DNA from: Moniliella sp. 'wahieum'
Lineage: Eukaryota
Direction of reading: 5' to 3'
Length of the DNA: 64,000 bases
NCBI GenBank assembly: GCA_003971905.1
Contig: RSEE01000041.1
Coordinates: forward strand, 310,001-374,000
Below, piece after piece: positions 11,996 through 51,460 of the stretch. Every line of letters begins with the position of its first letter. The first letter of the stretch is position 1. The position numbers and the translations under genes are program-made. The notes below the pieces were generated by a model. It was given only the letters and a program-made list of their open reading frames with translations, was not told the DNA's origin and made no database searches.

Positions 11996-12293
11996 GGCAG
12001 GTGCAAGTGCGTGCGGAATGCAGCAGCCAGCGGCGATGGTTGCCCAAATGCCGCCGAGGGCGCCCAGCAGGCGCAGCGGGGGCCCTTGGCGGGTTACGTC
12101 AGCTGCGCCCTGCTGCTGGTTCCGTCGGGCGTTTGCATGCCCTCAGAGAAGAAAAAGCAGCAGCAACCCTACTTATCTTAGCAGCCCCGATGGTGTCCAT
12201 CATCATCATGCATCATGCACCATGGCCCCCCTGCAGCCCATGGTCGTCTACGTCTCGGCTACGAATGGGGACTGGGACGGCTAACATCAGATC

Positions 12294-13879
12294 TCAGACG
12301 AGGGAAGCTGTGGGATGCGATGGCAGGGAAATTGAATTGGTACACATGAGTGAGAGAGATGCAGGCCGAGGCAAGGGGAGTGGGAACGAGGCGGGGGAGC
12401 AGGGGGATGGCATGGTAGCTGCCACCTTAATTTTCATCCGTCGGGAACAGTTAAGGCTGCCAACTCGGGATCGGCACACGTGGTGGCCCAGCCCGGGAAG
12501 CCAACTGGTACGGCGCAAGGTGCGACGGGTTGCAGCGAGTGCTGCAGAGGCAGCAAGGGAAGGCTGGGAGTACATGAGCGCACGGGCCATACTGAGGGGG
12601 TCGGGCGTGCTAGCAAGGTAAGGCGCCGACTTGGCATCCGCACGAGGAGGCGGTAGGCACGTAGGCGCCCAGACGTATGGTGCAGCGTTCCAGCCAGTCC
12701 CGGGGTGGAGGCATGGTGTCCATCGGGCTGGAAAAGGAACTAACCATAGGGGGCGGCAGCAAGGTGCGCGATGCATCCCCCAGTGGGCAGACGGGTGGGG
12801 TAAAGGTAAACTCGCCCGTGGGCACTCGCACAGGTTGGGGTGAGATGGGGGAATAGACACCGTTCCCGGGCACGGACAGAGACGCCGTCCGTTGGTTCGC
12901 AGAGGCGAGCACACTGGGTAAGGCGGTGTGGCAGGCGAGGACGCGAGGAAGGCCAAGGGACTAGCTGCCGGTGATGCATACCGGAGCGCTTGTTGCTGCG
13001 CAGCCAAATCGGACGCTTGGACTTCCGAAGCGCGCTGAGCCAGCAGATGGGTTACATGCGTCCCCCACGTAGCAAGTTGGTCGGAAGTAACGTGAATGCT
13101 AAAGCCTAGGCCGGCCCATAGTTGCGCTTCACACGCCGTGACAAGCTTAGTCGGGAGCGATACAATGTCTGCCCACGTTTTGCTCGTATAGGTATGGTCC
13201 TCAAGCAATTTGTTTGCCAACACCAGCCCGGCCACGGATGCACGGTACTCGGACTGAGTTCCTCCGAGTACTTCCGGGTGGAGATGTTTAAAGCGTCGGA
13301 CATACAGTCTGCGCCCCAACTTGTCGTCAGTATATGAAAACAGGAGCGTAAGGACATGACTTACAAGGCCACCAACAATGAATCATGTGTTGGTCGCAAG
13401 CTGCGAAAGACCTCCCGTAACCCGAGACAAACTGAGGACAGGGCCGTAAACGGCGACTGGTCCGGTCCTCCGCAAGAGGAGGAAGAGGGGAGGTGCTGCC
13501 GGGTAGGAGACCGTGGGTCAAAGCGGTGTAGGAAGTCGTTGGCTCGGAAGACTAGGCCAGGCGGGCCTGGAGAGAACCACAGGGAACAGACAACTTCGGC
13601 AAACCACTTTGCCATTTCCGTGTAGGAAGGACGAGTGGATCGTGCACGGGGTCGCTTGGCTGTGGGTTGAATAGCGGGCAAGGGCAGTGCCTCGGGGTGA
13701 ACGACGGGTGGATAGTCAGCGCATGGAGGCTGCAAGGGGTGGTAGTGGTGGGCAGGAGGGGATGGATGGGAATGGGATGCCTTGCGCTTTGGCCTGGACA
13801 GTGCCGCAGGAATGGGATACTGGACGGAAGCGGGAAGGGAGGACATGGAAGCGTAGCGATTGGTCTCCATAGTGGTCAT
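12294..13879 (-). CDS. Cyclin-box protein (Pcl/Clg1/Pas1-like) with low-complexity tails; ends approximate
   Basis: Cyclin-fold motifs AKWFAEVVCSLW, HDSLLVAL.YVRRFK and YRASVAGLVLANKLLEDHTYTSKTWADI..EAQLWAGLGFSIHV. Confidence 0.75.
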
Positions 13880-14814
13880 AGCAAAGGCGAGCACACCCAG
13901 GGGAAGAAGTATGGCTGGGGTGGCGGTGGTGGCGGTGGTAGAAGCACAAGCAAGCAAAGTTGTGTGGGTGGGAAGGAGAAAATGGGCAAATGACCGCCAG
14001 AGCTAACTAACGTCTAGCCGTCAGCGTTCACGTTGCGGCGTAGACAACCTATAGAAAACCCACGGTGTGAGCATGGGCGGGCGTGGGGCAAGACGGGTTA
14101 GGCGTTGAGAGTTTGCAGGTGTGAATCAGTGATGAATATTGCATGCGCGCATTAATCACCACCGTCGGGCGTTTGCGGCCGGCACCCGCGTACCACGTCT
14201 TGCACATGGTGGCGGGTGGTGGCGGGCAAGTGGAGCGAAAGGGTTGTCTGATCTACGTAGCATGCGCAGCCGGCAGCATGTAGCGTGTCGTGTGTGCGCC
14301 CCCTTGGCCAGATTCAAAGAGCGTCGAGCCTCCCCACTGTGGCTGCGCACCAGCATGCCTACGCATCATGCACCACACATCAGCCCTCTGTCGTCTCATT
14401 CTCCTCGTCTCATCGCCCCATCGCCTCATCCATATTCGATCGCAATATCTCATCCCACAGCCCATGGGCCCAGACTGAGGCGCTGGCCAGGCGGCTGCGG
14501 CCGAGGCCTGAGGCGCCGAGGCGAGACGCTGAGACGCTGAGACGCTCTGACGCTGGAGGCCCTAGTAAGTGTTGCCCGAGCCTCGGCAGTGCTCGACTCG
14601 GTGCAAGCCAGCCGCGTGATCGAGTGATCGTGAGGCGGTGACTATGAGCCTCACACGCCTCTCAGGCCTGAGGCCCTGACCTGAGGCTTCCAGGTTCTAG
14701 CTGCTTCAGCTTTTCATTCATGCAAACTCCATGTGAAGTGACTGGTGACCTCATGTCACTGGTACAGCAGGTGAAGCTTGAACTTCCAGTTGAAGCGTGT
14801 GGCGGTGGACATGC

Positions 14815-15031
14815 TGTTGGGACCCGTGGTCCCGTACTTAGGCCAAGGCGCCTCATCACCCTTCACACCCTGATTTGTCCTCCGAAGCCTCCACGTGTAT
14901 ACTCAGGCTTGTCTGAACCCCTGTCTCTAGGTGTGGCACAAGGCTTAGACCTTAACCACCACCATCGCGATTGCATTGCTCTACATTTCCAGAGGTTCTT
15001 CCCCAATCCCTTGGGTTCCTCCGGTCTTACA
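14815..15031 (+). repeat. 5' LTR
   Basis: TGTTGGGACCC...GGTCTTACA, direct repeat of 20151-20367. Confidence 0.97.
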
Positions 15032-15045
15032 GAGTTACAATCCTC
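15032..15045 (+). promoter_or_regulatory. Candidate primer-binding site (GAGTTACAATCCTC), non-canonical
   Basis: Abuts the 5' LTR. It lacks the TGG start expected for priming by a tRNA CCA end. Its reverse complement reads as an anticodon arm, GAGGA-TT-GTA-AC-TC. Confidence 0.55.
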
Positions 15046-15137
15046 TTGACGCTCAGCCCTGAGCCTTCCACTCTTACACTCTTCGGTCCTCCGCTGCCGG
15101 CCCTATCCACAAGCGCTTGCTCGAACTGCGTAAGCTA

Positions 15138-18100
15138 ATGGCAAGCATCATGAGCTCTCAGACTCAGGAGTCTTGGTTCAACTCCTCAACCCCTACTTCA
15201 CCAACTGCCGGAGCAGAAGAGAGCACCACTCCCGTCGGAGTTGACCACGCCTCCCCGCCGCTGACACCATCGCGTGAATCTACCCCTACACCTCAACCCA
15301 CCCCCGTGGGCCCCGACAACACCGCGAACGACGTCGCCACCCTCGCCGACCGCATTCGCAACATGTTCAAATTGTTTCCCGAACACATCACCCTCAAACA
15401 GCTACAGGACACTGGTATCAAGCTTGGGTACAGCGAAAAGACGACCACAGAAGCCATTGTCATGTTATCATGTGAGAATCCACCCAATGCTAGCAAGAAC
15501 GAAGGTGCCTTATCGTCAACTCCGGCCGTCGACGACAACCCGTGGGCTTTGACTCCCGACAAGCTCCTCCGTAGTGCCACTCGCAGCAACGTGCCGTACC
15601 ACGAGCGTTTCCACAACAACAGCTCGTTTTGGTTATGGACCCGGATCTTCCTCCCTCGTATCCAGATTATCCCTGGAGCGCGTGAGCATCTGGAACAGGG
15701 CAAGGCCCTGGACGGGTATAACGCAGAACTGGACGCTCACTTGGCCAACATTCTACTCCCGTGGATAGACTCCGACGTCGTCCAGCAGATCACCGGCGAT
15801 GGCACGCCGGCTCTAGGGTCTGCATACTATCATGCTCTGCGTGATTTGTACGGCACCGTTTCAGACACTGAGATCTGTGATATCCTCATAAAGGTTCTCA
15901 CTCTCAAAATGGGCACCAAGTCGGGCCGCCAATACCTGAATGAGTTCACTGTGGCGGTAACCCAGTACGAGATGACGTCCAAGTCCAAGCTGGACGAGAT
16001 TGGTCTAGCACAGATGCTACGGAAAGGCGTTACTGATCAGGGGTGGTTGCACCTCCATCGTAACAGCAGCTACGCCGAATTGCGCCGAGCAGTGAGCGAA
16101 CTCAAAGGCTCCAACTACGGCAGTACCTCCAGTTCAAGCCCAGCTCCCTCCAGTACGGCCCCTTCGGAAGCCACGTCGCACAGCCAAACAAGCAGTACGG
16201 TGACAGGCCGCGGACGAGGCCGAGGTGGCAGCGGGTACAGAGGAAGTCACCGTGGTGGCCAACGTGGCGGCCACTTTAGCCGGCCGGCTACGACAGCCCA
16301 GACCACCTCATCTGCCCATGCAGTAACCCCTATGGCAGCCACTACACCACCCAAGCCAGCCAACCTCCCTGCGCAACACGATTCAGGTGCGAGACCATCC
16401 GTATTCAATGAACGAAGTGCGTTTATCAATCTTCGTCCACACCGCGAGCCCATAGCAGTGGCAAACGGACAGATCGCATACACTGAAGGCATTGGCACCA
16501 TCTCTATGTACATTCAAACCCAGAACGGAGCCCCTATCCGCATCCACCTACCCGGCAGCTTGTACTGCCCCACCTTCCCGACCAACCTGCTCAGCGCTTA
16601 CCATCTATCTATCGCAGGCATTGGCAGCTGGATCCCTCCAGGTGGCCATGGTCTCTATCTCGGACGACACGGCGAACCTTTTCGTCTCGCCGCCGACTCA
16701 AGCTATTCCCTTACTCTGGCGCCCAATACGACAGCCACAGCCAACAGCGCCACTTCGCTACTCAACCTTGATGCAACCCTGGTCAAGGTGAAAAACGCCC
16801 ACATCCGATGGAATCATGCACCTCTAGATCAACTTTCATCCCTCACGTCGGATGACCCAGCATTCGAACGGGTCAACAGTGGCGACATCGCTTTAGTCCG
16901 GTCCTCGTGGCACTGTGCACCATGCGCATTAAGCAGAGCCACTGCCCCACCCCACGCCACGACTGGACGCCCAATCCGAACCATTCGCCCTTTCTCTCTC
17001 CTCCACCTCGACGTCCTTGACATATCCCGCCAAGGCGGCGGGGTCATACTTACGCCCTTATCATTGTCGACGACTTTACGCGGTATACCTGGACGCTACC
17101 CCTGGTGTCCAAGGGTGATGCCACAGCCGAACTTCAAGCCTTCATCCGGCGCGAGCATCGCCAACATCCCGACCGCCCCCTTCAGACGGTCCGCTCTGAC
17201 AATGCGCCTGAACTCACCACCGCAATGGACGAGTTTTACTGCGAGCTGGGAGTAGTGAGCGAGCGCACCAATCCTGGCGAAAGTGCGTCCAATGGGGTCG
17301 CCGAACGCGCCATAAGATCGATTACGGATCGCGCTCGACTCATGGTAATCGCCAACAGATTGACTCCCGACGAGTGGTGGGAACACAGCTTGTTGGCGGC
17401 CACATATGCACACAACCAGTCGCCGCCGAAAGCACTGGGTGGGGACAGCCGATTTGTCCGGTACCATGGCTTCAAACCCTCCCTTCGCATGCGCGGTTTT
17501 GGCACTCTTGCCTACCTGCACCTATTGCCCAACCAACGCGAGGGCGGCAAACTTGGTCCGCGGGCCGTCCCAGCAATGTTGGTGGGTTACGGGCACGGCC
17601 GCGGTTCGAAGGGGTGGCTCTTTGCCATCCACCAGGACGACGGCCAAGTTGGATTCCGTTGGAAAAAGCCGTCCACCTGGACGCATGTCCCGTACACCAC
17701 CGAATATCCCACGCACTTTCATCTGGACCCCCTTGTCCCTGCTGGTGGCGGAGAGGTGCGGGGGGGCGGAGAAATGGGTGCTGGTGGGGAAGTCAGACAG
17801 CTCCCCACCCCGGCGTGTGCGTTTTGCGATAGATGAACTGACCCGCGATACTAATGGTAAGAAAGACAATGCCCCCCATGGAAAAAGAAAATTAAAAGAA
17901 CGAAAAACAGAGGCACATCGCCCGGCTCAAGCCAACGAAAATGAGAATTCAGAGCCTGGCCCCACTCCCACCAACTCCAACCCCCCACATGTATCCCCCC
18001 AACCTGTTGCATCTGACCCCGCAGGCATGGCACAACGCCAGGCAAAGCAAGCCGAAGAAAATGAAACTATCACAGAAGATGCCGTTGACACTGGCCACCA

Positions 18101-20112
18101 AGTCCTGCTTTCCCCTCCCTCTTCCACTTCCCCTTCCTCTCCCGCCCTATCCCCTCCCCTCTCTCCCCCACCGACACGCTCGCCCCCGTGACCGTGCCCC
18201 TGACCGATACAGCCGTCCCCGCACTCGTGCGTCGCAATCCCGTTCGCCAAGCGCGTATCAACGCTCCACCCCTCGACCTGTCCATTCCAGCCAACGACAA
18301 TTTGCGCGATGGCACCTTTTCCCTGCTCGTCAACAAGGCCCCTAGCATCTTTGGCAACCCGGCCGCCCTCTCCGCCCTAGGAATGCAGGCTTTGGTGAGT
18401 ATTTTCGGACCAGCGCCGGACACATCCATGCTACCTGCTTCGGAGCCAAGCTCGCCCCCCATTGCACTCGCAATCGAATCCGCGGCAAGTGACACCGAGG
18501 TCATACTGACCACCGATGGGGTCCCGGTGGCCCCCAAGAACATCAAGAAGTTGGTGGGTCACCCTGCCTTTGATGGCGTACTCGAGGCAATGCGCCTCGA
18601 GCTTCGGCGTTTTGACGAGCGTGACGTGAAGGAAGTTGTACCCATCCCCCCAGGGATCAAACCCCTTCCCGGCATGTGGGTCATAGGTACTAAGACGGAT
18701 GCGGATGCTAACTTCCTCAAGTACCGTGCCCGCTACGTTGTGGGAGGGCACCGGCAAGTTCCTGGCACATGGGCGAAATCTTTTGCTCCTGCCGTTCGTA
18801 CTGCTGCCGTCAACACGCTAATTGCGTTGGCCGAAGCTGATGGCCTCCACTTATTTTCTGCCGATGTGGAAGCTGCCTACCTCTATGCCGATATCAACGA
18901 GCTCGTCTATGTTCGACCACCCCCTTCTTCCCAGAAGCGCCCGGTCATTGCTGGAGACTCAAGAAAAGTCTCTATGGCCTGCACCAGAGCGGGGCCAACT
19001 TTGGAGATTGGCTCCGCACTTTCCTTTGCGACCGACTCCACTTCACTAGCCTAAAATCAGAGCCTTGCCTGTTCATACGTCGCACCGAACCTCTTGGCCT
19101 GATCCTAATCGCCGTCCACACTGACGACTTTTTGGTCGCGTGTCGGTCCCAAGAAGCGTATGATGAATTCTTAGTGGAATTAAGGCGCAGCATCCAAATT
19201 AAGTCCAACGGCCCCCTACGTTTCCATCTCGGCTGCCAATACGACCGTATCGATGGACGACTGTACATCAGCCAACCCAAATTCATCGCTGAGACGCTTG
19301 CCGCGCATGACATATCACCTCACCGGCCCCGCTACCTTCCAATCGGCCACCAACTTCCGCCTCCCAAGCGACCCGAACACGAAAAGCGTGCCACTCGAGA
19401 CGAGCACCGTGCCTACCGTTCTATTGTCGGATCCAGCTTGTGGGCGGCTCGTATGTCCCGGCCTGATGCCCTCTTTGCGGCTACCTTTTTAGCGCGGTTT
19501 ATGGACGACCCGTCCGCCGCCCACCGACGCGCAGCGGAGGACCTATTACGTTTCTTCGCCGGTACGTCTGACTACTCTTTGTGCCTCACACCCAACCGAT
19601 CTCGCCCTCTACTCGAGCTGCACACCGATGCCTCCTTTGCATCAGACAAGAGCAACTCTCACTCCGTTTCGGGCCATGTTGTTTTTGTTTTCGGTGTGCC
19701 TGTATCCTGGGGCTCCAAGTCCCAAAATCAAGGTGTGAGCAACACAGCAGCATCTGAATACCTAGCCATGGGAGATGGCCTTCGAGATGCTCTATTCATT
19801 CGCAACATACTGTTTGAACTTGGTGTCTGCAAGGCTAATCACCCGATTGAGCTCTTTGTTGACAACACCGCTGCCAAAGCGTTGGCCGAAAAGCTCGGCA
19901 GCCTAGGCAAAATACGGGAGATTGACGTCTCGTACCACGAGGTGCGGGAACGCATCCACCGAGGCGAAATTAAAGTCCACTACACTCCAGGTGCACACCA
20001 TCTCCCTGACTGGTTCACCAAACCTCTTTCTCTTCCCAAGATCATTTCTGCGCGTAACAATTTCGATTTGGCTTTCTTTCTTCGCGCTGATCCCCTTCTT
20101 TTTTTTTGTTGA
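15138..20112 (+). CDS. Copia Gag-Pol polyprotein, interrupted by several 1-nt frameshifts
   Basis: Protease HDSGA; GAG-pre-integrase HIRWNH..CAPC; integrase LLHLDV / VRSDNAPE / NGVAER; RT KYRARYVVGG, DVEAAYL, VHTDDFLV; RNase H HTDASFA, SEYLAM, VDN, DWFTKPL. Confidence 0.93.
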
Positions 20113-20150
20113 TGGCCAACGGGCTCTTTCGTTCCCTTGGCCCGGGGGGG

Positions 20151-20367
20151 TGTTGGGACCCGTGGGTCCCGTACTTAGGCCAAGGCGCCTCATCACCCTT
20201 CACCCCTGATTTGTCCTCCGAAGCCTCCACGTGTATACTCAGGCTTGTCTGAACCCCTGTCTCTAGGTGTGGCACAAGGCTTAGACCTTAACCACCACCA
20301 TCGCGATTGCATTGCTCTACATTTCCAGAGGTTCTTCACCCAATCCCTTGGTTCCTCCGGTCTTACA
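20151..20367 (+). repeat. 3' LTR
   Basis: Near-identical copy of the 5' LTR, preceded by a G7 PPT and followed by the CATGC TSD. Confidence 0.97.
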
Positions 20368-21040
20368 CATGCTGGACAAGTGGACAAAAGACCGTCCCAC
20401 CCATTCGCCCATGCTTTGATCCCATCGCGCTACTGCATGCGTGGGAAATGGGAGACGGTCTCGATGATGGATGATGCCGATGTGGGATGTACAGGGGCAT
20501 GTGCATGATGCATGATTCGGCCTTCGAACGGCGGCCAGGCGGGCTTGCTAGCTCCATGCTACACGAGGAGAGCAGTGGCAGGGGGCGACAGGAGGAGGAT
20601 GTGTGATGCTGCTGGAGATGCAGAAATGTGTGACATGTGATGATCGATCGATGATCGCGGATCGAGAGAACCATTCATTAATCAGCGACAATCGACAACG
20701 GTTGAATTCTTCGTTCTGAACAGTTTGGGATCGCTTGAGCTTGAAGCTTGAAGCAAGCTAGTCCAAGCTTGAGTTGCTTGAGTACCTTGCGCTTCAAACA
20801 AAAAACCACGCCCCCAGCCATGATGCATGATGCATGACGCCAAATACGTGGCGCATGGCGCGTAGCCAGTAATTAAAACAGCGGTTGCTGCGGCGGCTGC
20901 GCCTTGACGATGGTTGGACGTTGGATCTCTCTGGTTCCCGGTGTGGCGGCCACATGCTTCCAAGGGGCTCAATTTTTTCAAGGCCGAAGGCCGAAAGCAT
21001 GGGCGCCCTACGCACGACACCCTTTCGCCAATCATCATTG

Positions 21041-21076
<36 letters not shown>
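21041..21076. repeat. (CAT)12 microsatellite
   Basis: Read directly from the sequence. Confidence 0.95.
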
Positions 21077-21077
<1 letters not shown>

Positions 21078-22377
21078 GACCCCATGTAGCTCCGGTTTGC
21101 CGATATGCAGCGTTTCTTCGTCCCTGTTCAAGTTCTGTACTGGTATGAAAAACTCCAGTAGAAAACTAAGTACTAAGTACTGCCATCAACGCACTGTTGT
21201 GGTTGGCAGAGCAAATTAGGCCTGGGTGCGGTGACCGGTGACCATGGAGTTCACGCCAGATATACTTCTCCTTAGGCCTTACTAGTTACTAATTTTGCGT
21301 TAACGCCATTTACCGGATATACCCGCCGCGTCTTCTGCCGCGTCCAGCCGCCCCTTTTTCTTCACGCTCTCCCATCCAACCCCCAACCCCCTGGCACACA
21401 CAATCGCGGCGCACAGGCACAGCATGCTGGGAAGCCCCTCAATTCAATCCTGCATCCAGAGCTTCATCGAAGATTGTCCCCTCCCTCCATAGTGTGTGGG
21501 TGAATGGCGTGCACTAATGCGACGAATGCATCGTCGGGGACCGGGGCTTGTTGCATGCCATGGTCACATGCCACATGTCACACCGCCACAACGCCTCCCA
21601 ATAGAGCTGAGCTAAATTTCGCCGTGCCTGCCTTCTCGGAGGAGCACCGGCCGCTCCCTCCCCAAAATTCATATGCTCAGCGTCAGCAGTGACTATAGTG
21701 AGGCTCGCTGTATAATACGCGCTCCAACCTAGTCACTGTGTTCACATTGTTCACAACAGAACGGCCTGGTTCATTTCTACAGAAGCGCGGTGGCTGTCGT
21801 TGGTCAGGCGCCCCAGGCTGGGGGGCTGGCAACAGCTCCGGAGCCGCAACGACGGCGGATATATCCCAGGCACCCTTAATAACCTGGCCTAATGCCAAAA
21901 GGCCTAAAAGGCCTAAAAGGCCTAAAATTAAAAGGTCTAACTAGTAAGCCGGTAACTCCCAACTAGCCAAGGCCTAGCAGGGCCCATCTCCCGGTTTTGG
22001 GCCAGCCACGGCAGGCCACGGCTACCCAAATTCCCAAACGCGTCCTTGGCAGAGAGGATACCGCGGTCCCGGCCAATCAAGTCCCCTGTAGACCAGAAAT
22101 TGCACATCAGACAGTAGCGCGGAGCTGTTTTGCGCCCTGGCGTCTGCGGCTTGGCCGTTACCGCGTTACCGGATGCTGGGGCTACCAGAGTACTAGGTAC
22201 TGGCTGGACGGACCCAAAGTGACCTCACCGATGAGACTCATCTCTGAGGTGGCCGGTGCCTGTGAGTGCATGCGAGCGGTGACCGTCACCTGCCACAGAG
22301 TCCAGAGGCTCCCGAGGCTCCAGAGGCCCACGGCGGTCTGTTATCTGACCAGTGACTCACTAGTCAGTGACTAGCGA

Positions 22378-49586: not shown

Positions 49587-49670
49587 TAGCTACCGTCGGT
49601 CTTGATCCGACGACCTGTGGGTCACAGAGCAATTATGAGCCCACCGCTCTTCCGCCTGAGCTAGGTAGCT
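49587..49670 (-). tRNA. Initiator tRNA-Met(CAT) with an 11-nt intron (49623-49633)
   Basis: Cloverleaf AGCTACC/GGTAGCT with A1:U72, anticodon arm GTGGG-CT-CAT-A^A-CCCAC with three G:C pairs, T-loop ATCAAGA (A54/A60), downstream T-run terminator. Confidence 0.93.
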
Positions 49671-51365: not shown

Positions 51366-51460
51366 GGCAATGTGCCCGAGTGGTTAAGGGGATTGATTCG
51401 AACTCTGTTTGAAATATCAATTAGGCTTCGCCTGCACAGGTTCGAGTCCTGTCATTGTCG
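51366..51460 (+). tRNA. tRNA-Ser(CGA) with a 13-nt intron (51403-51415)
   Basis: Acceptor stem GGCAATG/CATTGTC, anticodon arm ATTGA-TT-CGA-A^A-TCAAT, long variable arm AGGC-TTC-GCCT, GGTTCGAGTCC, discriminator G, T7 terminator. Confidence 0.95.

Follow-up and report, generated by a model that had tools for sequence, protein, structure and literature searches.

Introduction

The systems closest to the locus analyzed here are Ty1/copia retrotransposons that are primed by half tRNA molecules. In Drosophila copia, yeast Ty5, Volvox Osser, and 1731 (Pseudoviridae), all of which have the Ty1/copia gene order, the primer-binding site (PBS) abuts the 5′ long terminal repeat (LTR) and is complementary to the anticodon arm of initiator tRNA-Met, and the primer's 3′ end lies at nucleotide 40 of the tRNA (PMC1181622, PMC8515867, PMC5371799). 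According to one of these reports, the cDNA synthesis of hemiviruses starts from the 3′-OH of nucleotide 40, and the full-length tree does not follow the primer type (PMC1181622). In a review, internal cleavage by RNase P is given as the origin of the primer end of Ty5 (PMC5371799).

Primers other than the initiator tRNA have also been described. The plant Bianca lineage uses a half tRNA-Ile, and Osser, Bryco, and Gymco-II use a half tRNA-Met (PMC6317226). In fungi, the FunCo1 elements are described as having a site with complementarity to an internal portion of tRNA-Lys (PMC5445492), and LTR retrotransposons of Candida as having a site that matches an internal part of tRNA-Arg (PMC4139406, reporting Goodwin and Poulter 2000). 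In two bivalve TRIM elements, which are non-autonomous animal elements, the sequence right after the 5′ repeat is similar to the central part of tRNA-Tyr; the authors did not take this similarity for a functional primer site (PMC6934838). Our literature search turned up no copia element with a half tRNA-Tyr as its reported primer, and the supplements of published papers may name more primers, Tyr among them; in a search for the anticodon arm as a string of letters, the matches listed were unrelated by title.

Here, we analyzed a window of 64,000 nucleotides, i.e., the whole stretch from position 310,001 to 374,000 of contig RSEE01000041.1 of Moniliella sp. ‘wahieum’, for which an earlier note made from the letters alone had proposed that a copia element switched its primer from tRNAiMet to a half tRNA-Tyr(GTA). 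The element in this window resembles copia, Ty5, Osser, and 1731 in its gene order, in a site that abuts the 5′ LTR, in complementarity to an anticodon arm, and in a predicted primer end at nucleotide 40, but its site fits tRNA-Tyr instead of the initiator tRNA-Met. Like the Candida elements, it is a fungal element with a site for the internal region of a non-initiator tRNA; it differs from them in the tRNA (Tyr versus Arg), in the fungal phylum, and in the length of the match, which is 14 nucleotides here and is described as extensive for Candida gamma (PMC4139406). As in Bianca and FunCo1, a Ty1/copia element here has a site that corresponds to a half, or to an internal region, of an elongator tRNA. 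Unlike the tRNAs of Bianca (Ile) and FunCo1 (Lys), that for Tyr has a gene interrupted by an intron within the part that pairs, and the site therefore spans an exon junction. This crossing of a tRNA exon junction by the PBS is the distinctive detail of the element. The assignment to tRNA-Tyr held up in our analysis; the background against which the note had set the switch was incomplete, because half-tRNA primers from Arg, Ile, and Lys had already been published, and a departure from tRNAiMet is therefore less surprising.

Results

One LTR retrotransposon in the window spans positions 14815–20367 on the + strand, and no second copy of it was found in the window. Its LTRs are 217 bp each, begin with TG, end with CA (5′ LTR, 14815–15031; 3′ LTR, 20151–20367; + strand, aligned to each other), and are flanked by identical copies of the 5-bp target-site duplication CATGC (14810–14814 on the left and 20368–20372 on the right). 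The LTR boundaries were set from the LTR pair and the CATGC duplication, without use of the sequence that follows the 5′ LTR. An open reading frame (ORF) of 712 amino acids begins at 15117 and has its first ATG at 15138; this open part of gag-pol (15138–17255, + strand) covers gag, Pol_BBD, and the start of the integrase. The protease-like Pol_BBD domain lies at 16380–16616 (+ strand; Pfam, E = 1.2e-08). It is followed on the same strand, in shifted frames, by the C-terminal SH3-like domain of the integrase (17468–17623; PF25597, E = 4.8e-07) and a partial copia-type reverse transcriptase, RVT_2 (18626–18934; PF07727, E = 9.6e-19). A polypurine-tract-like run of seven G, read from the sequence, adjoins the 3′ LTR at 20144–20150 (+ strand). 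The order Pol_BBD, integrase SH3-like domain, and RVT_2 along the + strand is the Ty1/copia order, and the TG...CA LTRs, the 5-bp duplication, and the position of RVT_2 downstream of the integrase place the element in Ty1/copia. In the Pfam search, no integrase core domain scored at E ≤ 0.01, and no protein relatives of the element were found among the viral contigs or the genome contigs searched. Just upstream of the element, at 14500–14560, units resembling GAGACGCT and GAGGC form a short tandem array.

Frameshifts split pol over at least five frames in this copy. When aligned, the two LTRs agree in 215 columns and show no substitutions; they differ only by four indels of one base each, and these differences look more like indel errors of the assembly than like age. 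Since only one-base indels separate the LTRs, some of the internal frameshifts may also be artifacts, and the window copy may be young, with frame breaks that are partly artificial.

Directly after the terminal CA of the 5′ LTR lies the 14-mer GAGTTACAATCCTC (15032–15045, + strand), which is unique in the window even when up to two mismatches are allowed. No TGG occurs within the first 25 bases past the 5′ LTR, and the two tRNAs encoded in the window, with CCA added, gave complementary blocks of ≤ 7 nucleotides at this site. The position and the LTR ends agree with the note's description of a 14-mer that adjoins the CA and lacks a TGG start. Read against tRNA-Tyr(GTA), the predicted PBS is complementary to nucleotides 27–40 and takes in the anticodon loop, the whole 5′ strand of its stem, and two nucleotides of the 3′ strand.

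An initiator-type tRNA(CAT) gene is present at 49587–49670 on the minus strand, with an A1–U72 pair and an 11-nucleotide intron in the anticodon loop. It scored 48 bits in the permissive mode of Rfam and was missed by ARAGORN and by the fast mode of Rfam. Introns are uncommon in initiator tRNA genes. The other tRNA gene of the window, for tRNA-Ser(CGA), lies 1.7 kb away at 51366–51460 (+ strand) and has an intron of about 14 nucleotides; both tRNA genes of the window are therefore intron-bearing. As a primer, the spliced initiator arm predicts the PBS GGTTATGAGCCCAC. This sequence is absent after the 5′ LTR, and its sole match in the window (≤ 2 mismatches) is the unspliced initiator gene itself, so that the initiator tRNA-Met encoded in the window was rejected as the primer. 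The note's statement that the iMet gene of the window predicts another site was borne out by this result, and its preference for a half tRNA-Tyr is in line with the lack of a match to the initiator tRNA, the tRNA-Ser, and the LTR of the window.

We scanned metagenome contigs for tRNA-Tyr genes with a pattern made of nucleotides 27–37 (11 letters), an intron of 6–36 nucleotides, the inferred nucleotides 38–43, and a T-loop motif. Four loci matched. One of them, L002 (444–529 of its contig), scored 58.4 bits with Rfam and is a real tRNA gene, with a C1–G72 pair, GTA at nucleotides 34–36, and a 13-nucleotide intron after nucleotide 37. Nucleotides 27–40 of the spliced L002 tRNA, which is not a tRNA of the host, are the reverse complement of the 14-mer at 14 of 14 positions; the scan pattern forced nucleotides 27–43, and the independent part of this match is a true intron-bearing tRNA-Tyr in the right register. 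Nucleotides 26 (G) and 41 (C) of L002 mismatch the window bases that flank the 14-mer, and the unspliced gene matches it at only 11 of 14 positions. The other three loci (L001, L003, and L004) match the pattern but are not tRNAs; the same holds for L005, the sole match in the genomes of prokaryote species, and the viral contigs gave no match to the pattern. L003 and L004 (601–663) and L005 (301–363) are one shared non-tRNA stretch with a chance match to the pattern, which was found in two soil-type metagenome contigs and a Rhabdochlamydiaceae metagenome-assembled genome and appears to be a conserved coding segment.

The contig of L002 is AT-rich and carries a tRNA-Asn(GTT) gene 5 nucleotides upstream of the tRNA-Tyr(GTA) gene (the pair occupies 365–529), together with a small Methyltransf_24 ORF, the relatives of which are all environmental. 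The tight pairing of the two tRNA genes suggests a source other than a fungus, perhaps a protist or a large DNA virus, and the L002 arm is accordingly no proof for a fungus. A human tRNA-Tyr sequence that contains GAGCGGAGGACTGTAGA is printed in a preprint (10.1101/416727), and a protocol (PMC8220392) lists two primers for human tRNA-Tyr, of which the forward one matches this sequence and the reverse one ends in AAGGATCT. In these printed letters, the human tRNA shares with the site the pentamer of the 5′ stem strand, U33, GTA, and TC at nucleotides 39–40, so that 11 of 14 positions agree and the differences are confined to nucleotides 32, 37, and 38. The tRNA-Tyr of budding yeast has a different stem, and the arm is thus not universal in fungi. 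The note had read the reverse complement of the 14-mer as tRNA nucleotides 27–40 and had assigned it to a half tRNA-Tyr(GTA) with the hemivirus type of geometry. The L002 match supports both statements, and the human stem letters and the end of the match at nucleotide 40 support the second. Measured against L002, i.e., a tRNA of another organism, the predicted PBS is complementary to an anticodon arm and ends at about nucleotide 40, as in the hemivirus type.

To judge the level of chance, the shape and the letters of the arm have to be separated. The anticodon-arm shape (U33, a purine at 37, and two closing pairs) occurs in 1,885 of 127,974 14-mers of the window (1.5%), and for this reason the shape alone is weak evidence. 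For the degenerate pattern GAGGAYTGTARMTC, which covers the human and L002 tRNA-Tyr arms, 0.12 occurrences with ≤ 1 mismatch are expected over both strands of the window; one was found, at the exact position of the PBS and on the correct strand. That chance would put a match to a tRNA-Tyr arm precisely here is very unlikely.

Four metagenome runs were aligned to positions 12001–22000 of the window, and the flanks of the element had no cover in any of them. One contig of 5,549 nucleotides in an insect-gut metagenome (run X2) represents a diverged copy of the element and lacks the flanks seen in the window. This copy aligns to 14925–15063, i.e., 32 nucleotides beyond the LTR end, after which 330 other letters replace 102. 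The aligned piece has 14 differences, of which seven were located, all at 14959–14999 and none at 15002–15032; up to seven of the 14 fall in two end zones of about 30 bases each, and the right zone includes the 14-mer. A food metagenome (run X1) contained interior pieces (16356–17607 and 19672–19974) at 99–100% identity and low depth, as well as an LTR piece (20165–20339). These pieces came without the flanking genes, a pattern compatible with a multi-copy family or another strain of the host. The remaining two runs (X3 and X4) gave short pieces only, which look spurious.

Past the predicted PBS, after 5 nucleotides, the leader contains an inverted repeat, the perfect palindrome GCTCAG-CC-CTGAGC (15051–15064, + strand), the complement of which resembles both strands of the tRNA D-stem (nucleotides 10–15 and 22–26). 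Aligned to tRNA nucleotides 10–26, the leader scored 13; p ranged from 0.034 to 0.155 with the segment chosen for the test and was 0.036 against genomic 25-mers. The likeness is statistically marginal, and we treated pairing of the leader with the D-arm as not significant.

Discussion

On the evidence of the letters, we consider that the 14-mer is probably the minus-strand PBS of the Ty1/copia element and would pair with nucleotides 27–40 of a spliced tRNA-Tyr(GUA). In the proposed mechanism, a cut in the anticodon stem would separate nucleotide 40 of the mature, spliced cytoplasmic tRNA-Tyr from nucleotide 41. The resulting 5′ fragment of 40 nucleotides would anneal through its nucleotides 27–40 to positions 15032–15045, and its 3′-OH at nucleotide 40 would prime minus-strand strong-stop DNA into U5. 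Copia, Ty5, and other hemiviruses employ a piece of the initiator tRNA-Met in the same manner. Nucleotide 40 is the last one in the observed match, and the template continues with the final base of U5. The host would have to encode a tRNA-Tyr with this arm. The spliced form would serve as the primer, since the site extends across the junction of the exons at 37/38 and only part of it is matched by the unspliced L002 gene. G26 is dimethylated in eukaryotic tRNAs. Such a modified G26 would stop the plus-strand copying of the primer and may thereby set the inner limit of the site at nucleotide 27.

Two alternatives to this mechanism deny that the site says anything about a tRNA primer. The element might use no tRNA at all, with self-priming like that of Tf1 or a hairpin like that of the fungal GalEa copia elements, in which case the likeness to tRNA-Tyr would be due to chance. 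A canonical site of the TGG type is indeed absent, a 6-bp palindrome lies 5 nucleotides downstream of the PBS, and fungal copia elements without a tRNA site have been published (PMC5445492). Self-priming of the Tf1 kind calls for a PBS that is complementary to the start of the LTR transcript, but the best complementarity between the LTR and the 14-mer was 8 of 14 positions, and the best duplex (−11.8 kcal/mol) was equaled or bettered by 166 of 300 shuffles. No LTR stretch complements the 14-mer, as the note had stated, and self-priming is therefore without support. The Conserved Hairpin Site of GalEa is described as a 9-bp palindrome that includes the final A of the LTR and has a complementary second box 12–41 bp away (PMC5445492); in the window, there is no palindrome at the junction between LTR and PBS, and the fold of 15010–15110 was no better than that of shuffles (z = −0.91). 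Together with the very low chance of a tRNA-Tyr arm match at this place, these results make priming without a tRNA quite unlikely. The other alternative accepts a site but regards it as a decayed or non-functional remnant that is uninformative about how the family is primed. The breakage of pol over at least five frames would suit such a remnant; on the other side, the target-site duplication is intact, the LTRs have no substitutions in 215 aligned bases and only the four one-base indels, and a full match of 14 positions to a tRNA arm is not expected of a decayed site. Since the LTRs are free of substitutions, the site is unlikely to have decayed, and we regard a remnant as highly improbable.

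The remaining alternatives concern which tRNA molecule is bound. The arm of another host tRNA could be the partner, e.g., that of tRNA-Thr(UGU) in a register shifted by one base. This register (loop A-T-TGT-A-A) also allows U33 and a purine at 37, and the bacterial mode of ARAGORN calls the L002 gene Thr(TGT); that call is an artifact of the intron, because Rfam puts GTA at nucleotides 34–36 of L002. The Thr register moreover needs an A at nucleotide 32, places an A opposite a C in the pair 29–41, and would end the match at nucleotide 41 instead of the published nucleotide 40 (PMC1181622). The stem letters of the site, in turn, agree with known tRNA-Tyr, and there is very little likelihood that a different tRNA arm is bound. 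It could also be argued that the primer is the unspliced pre-tRNA-Tyr or a splicing intermediate, with the final CTC of the site pairing with the start of the intron. Both tRNA genes of the window have introns, and that of the L002 tRNA-Tyr follows nucleotide 37, as such a primer would need; yet the L002 intron begins differently and leaves a match of only 11 of 14, and nucleotides 39–40 of the mature tRNA-Tyr of L002 and of human, as printed in the sources above, already give TC. Furthermore, the splicing endonuclease leaves a cyclic phosphate on the 5′ exon that it releases, and such an exon cannot prime. A primer of this kind seems scarcely plausible to us, and the mature, spliced tRNA-Tyr remains our preferred primer.

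Half-tRNA priming as such is known, and what the present element would probably add is tRNA-Tyr as a new primer for it, judging from the match of the site to the arm. The list of half-molecule primers has so far comprised the initiator Met, Arg, Ile, and Lys, and Tyr would now join it. In such a list, the identity of the primer is labile and the 27–40 geometry is fixed. Standard annotation tools seek matches to the 3′ ends of tRNAs, and elements of the half-tRNA type are consequently scored as having no PBS. Tyr is the one case among these in which the paired region extends across the site of a tRNA intron, and it may thus offer a handle on whether primers are selected before or after splicing. 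The practical gain is modest and would consist of better PBS catalogs for fungal copia elements and of a prediction, namely 5′ fragments of tRNA-Tyr with nucleotide 40 as their last.

A broader reading, which we put forward tentatively and with rather less than even confidence, is that a copia lineage in smut-related basidiomycetes may prime from the first 40 nucleotides of the spliced tRNA-Tyr. If this were true, the primer could be chosen only after tRNA splicing, because the site spans the 37/38 junction, and a contact between the leader palindrome (15051–15064) and the D-arm of the tRNA may add to this selection. The limits 27–40 are shared with the initiator halves, and Arg, Ile, and Lys cases have been described; taken together, these would mean that structure-specific cleavage at 40/41, along with a stop at the modified G26, applies to any tRNA, and half-tRNA elements would then be free to hop between primer tRNAs.
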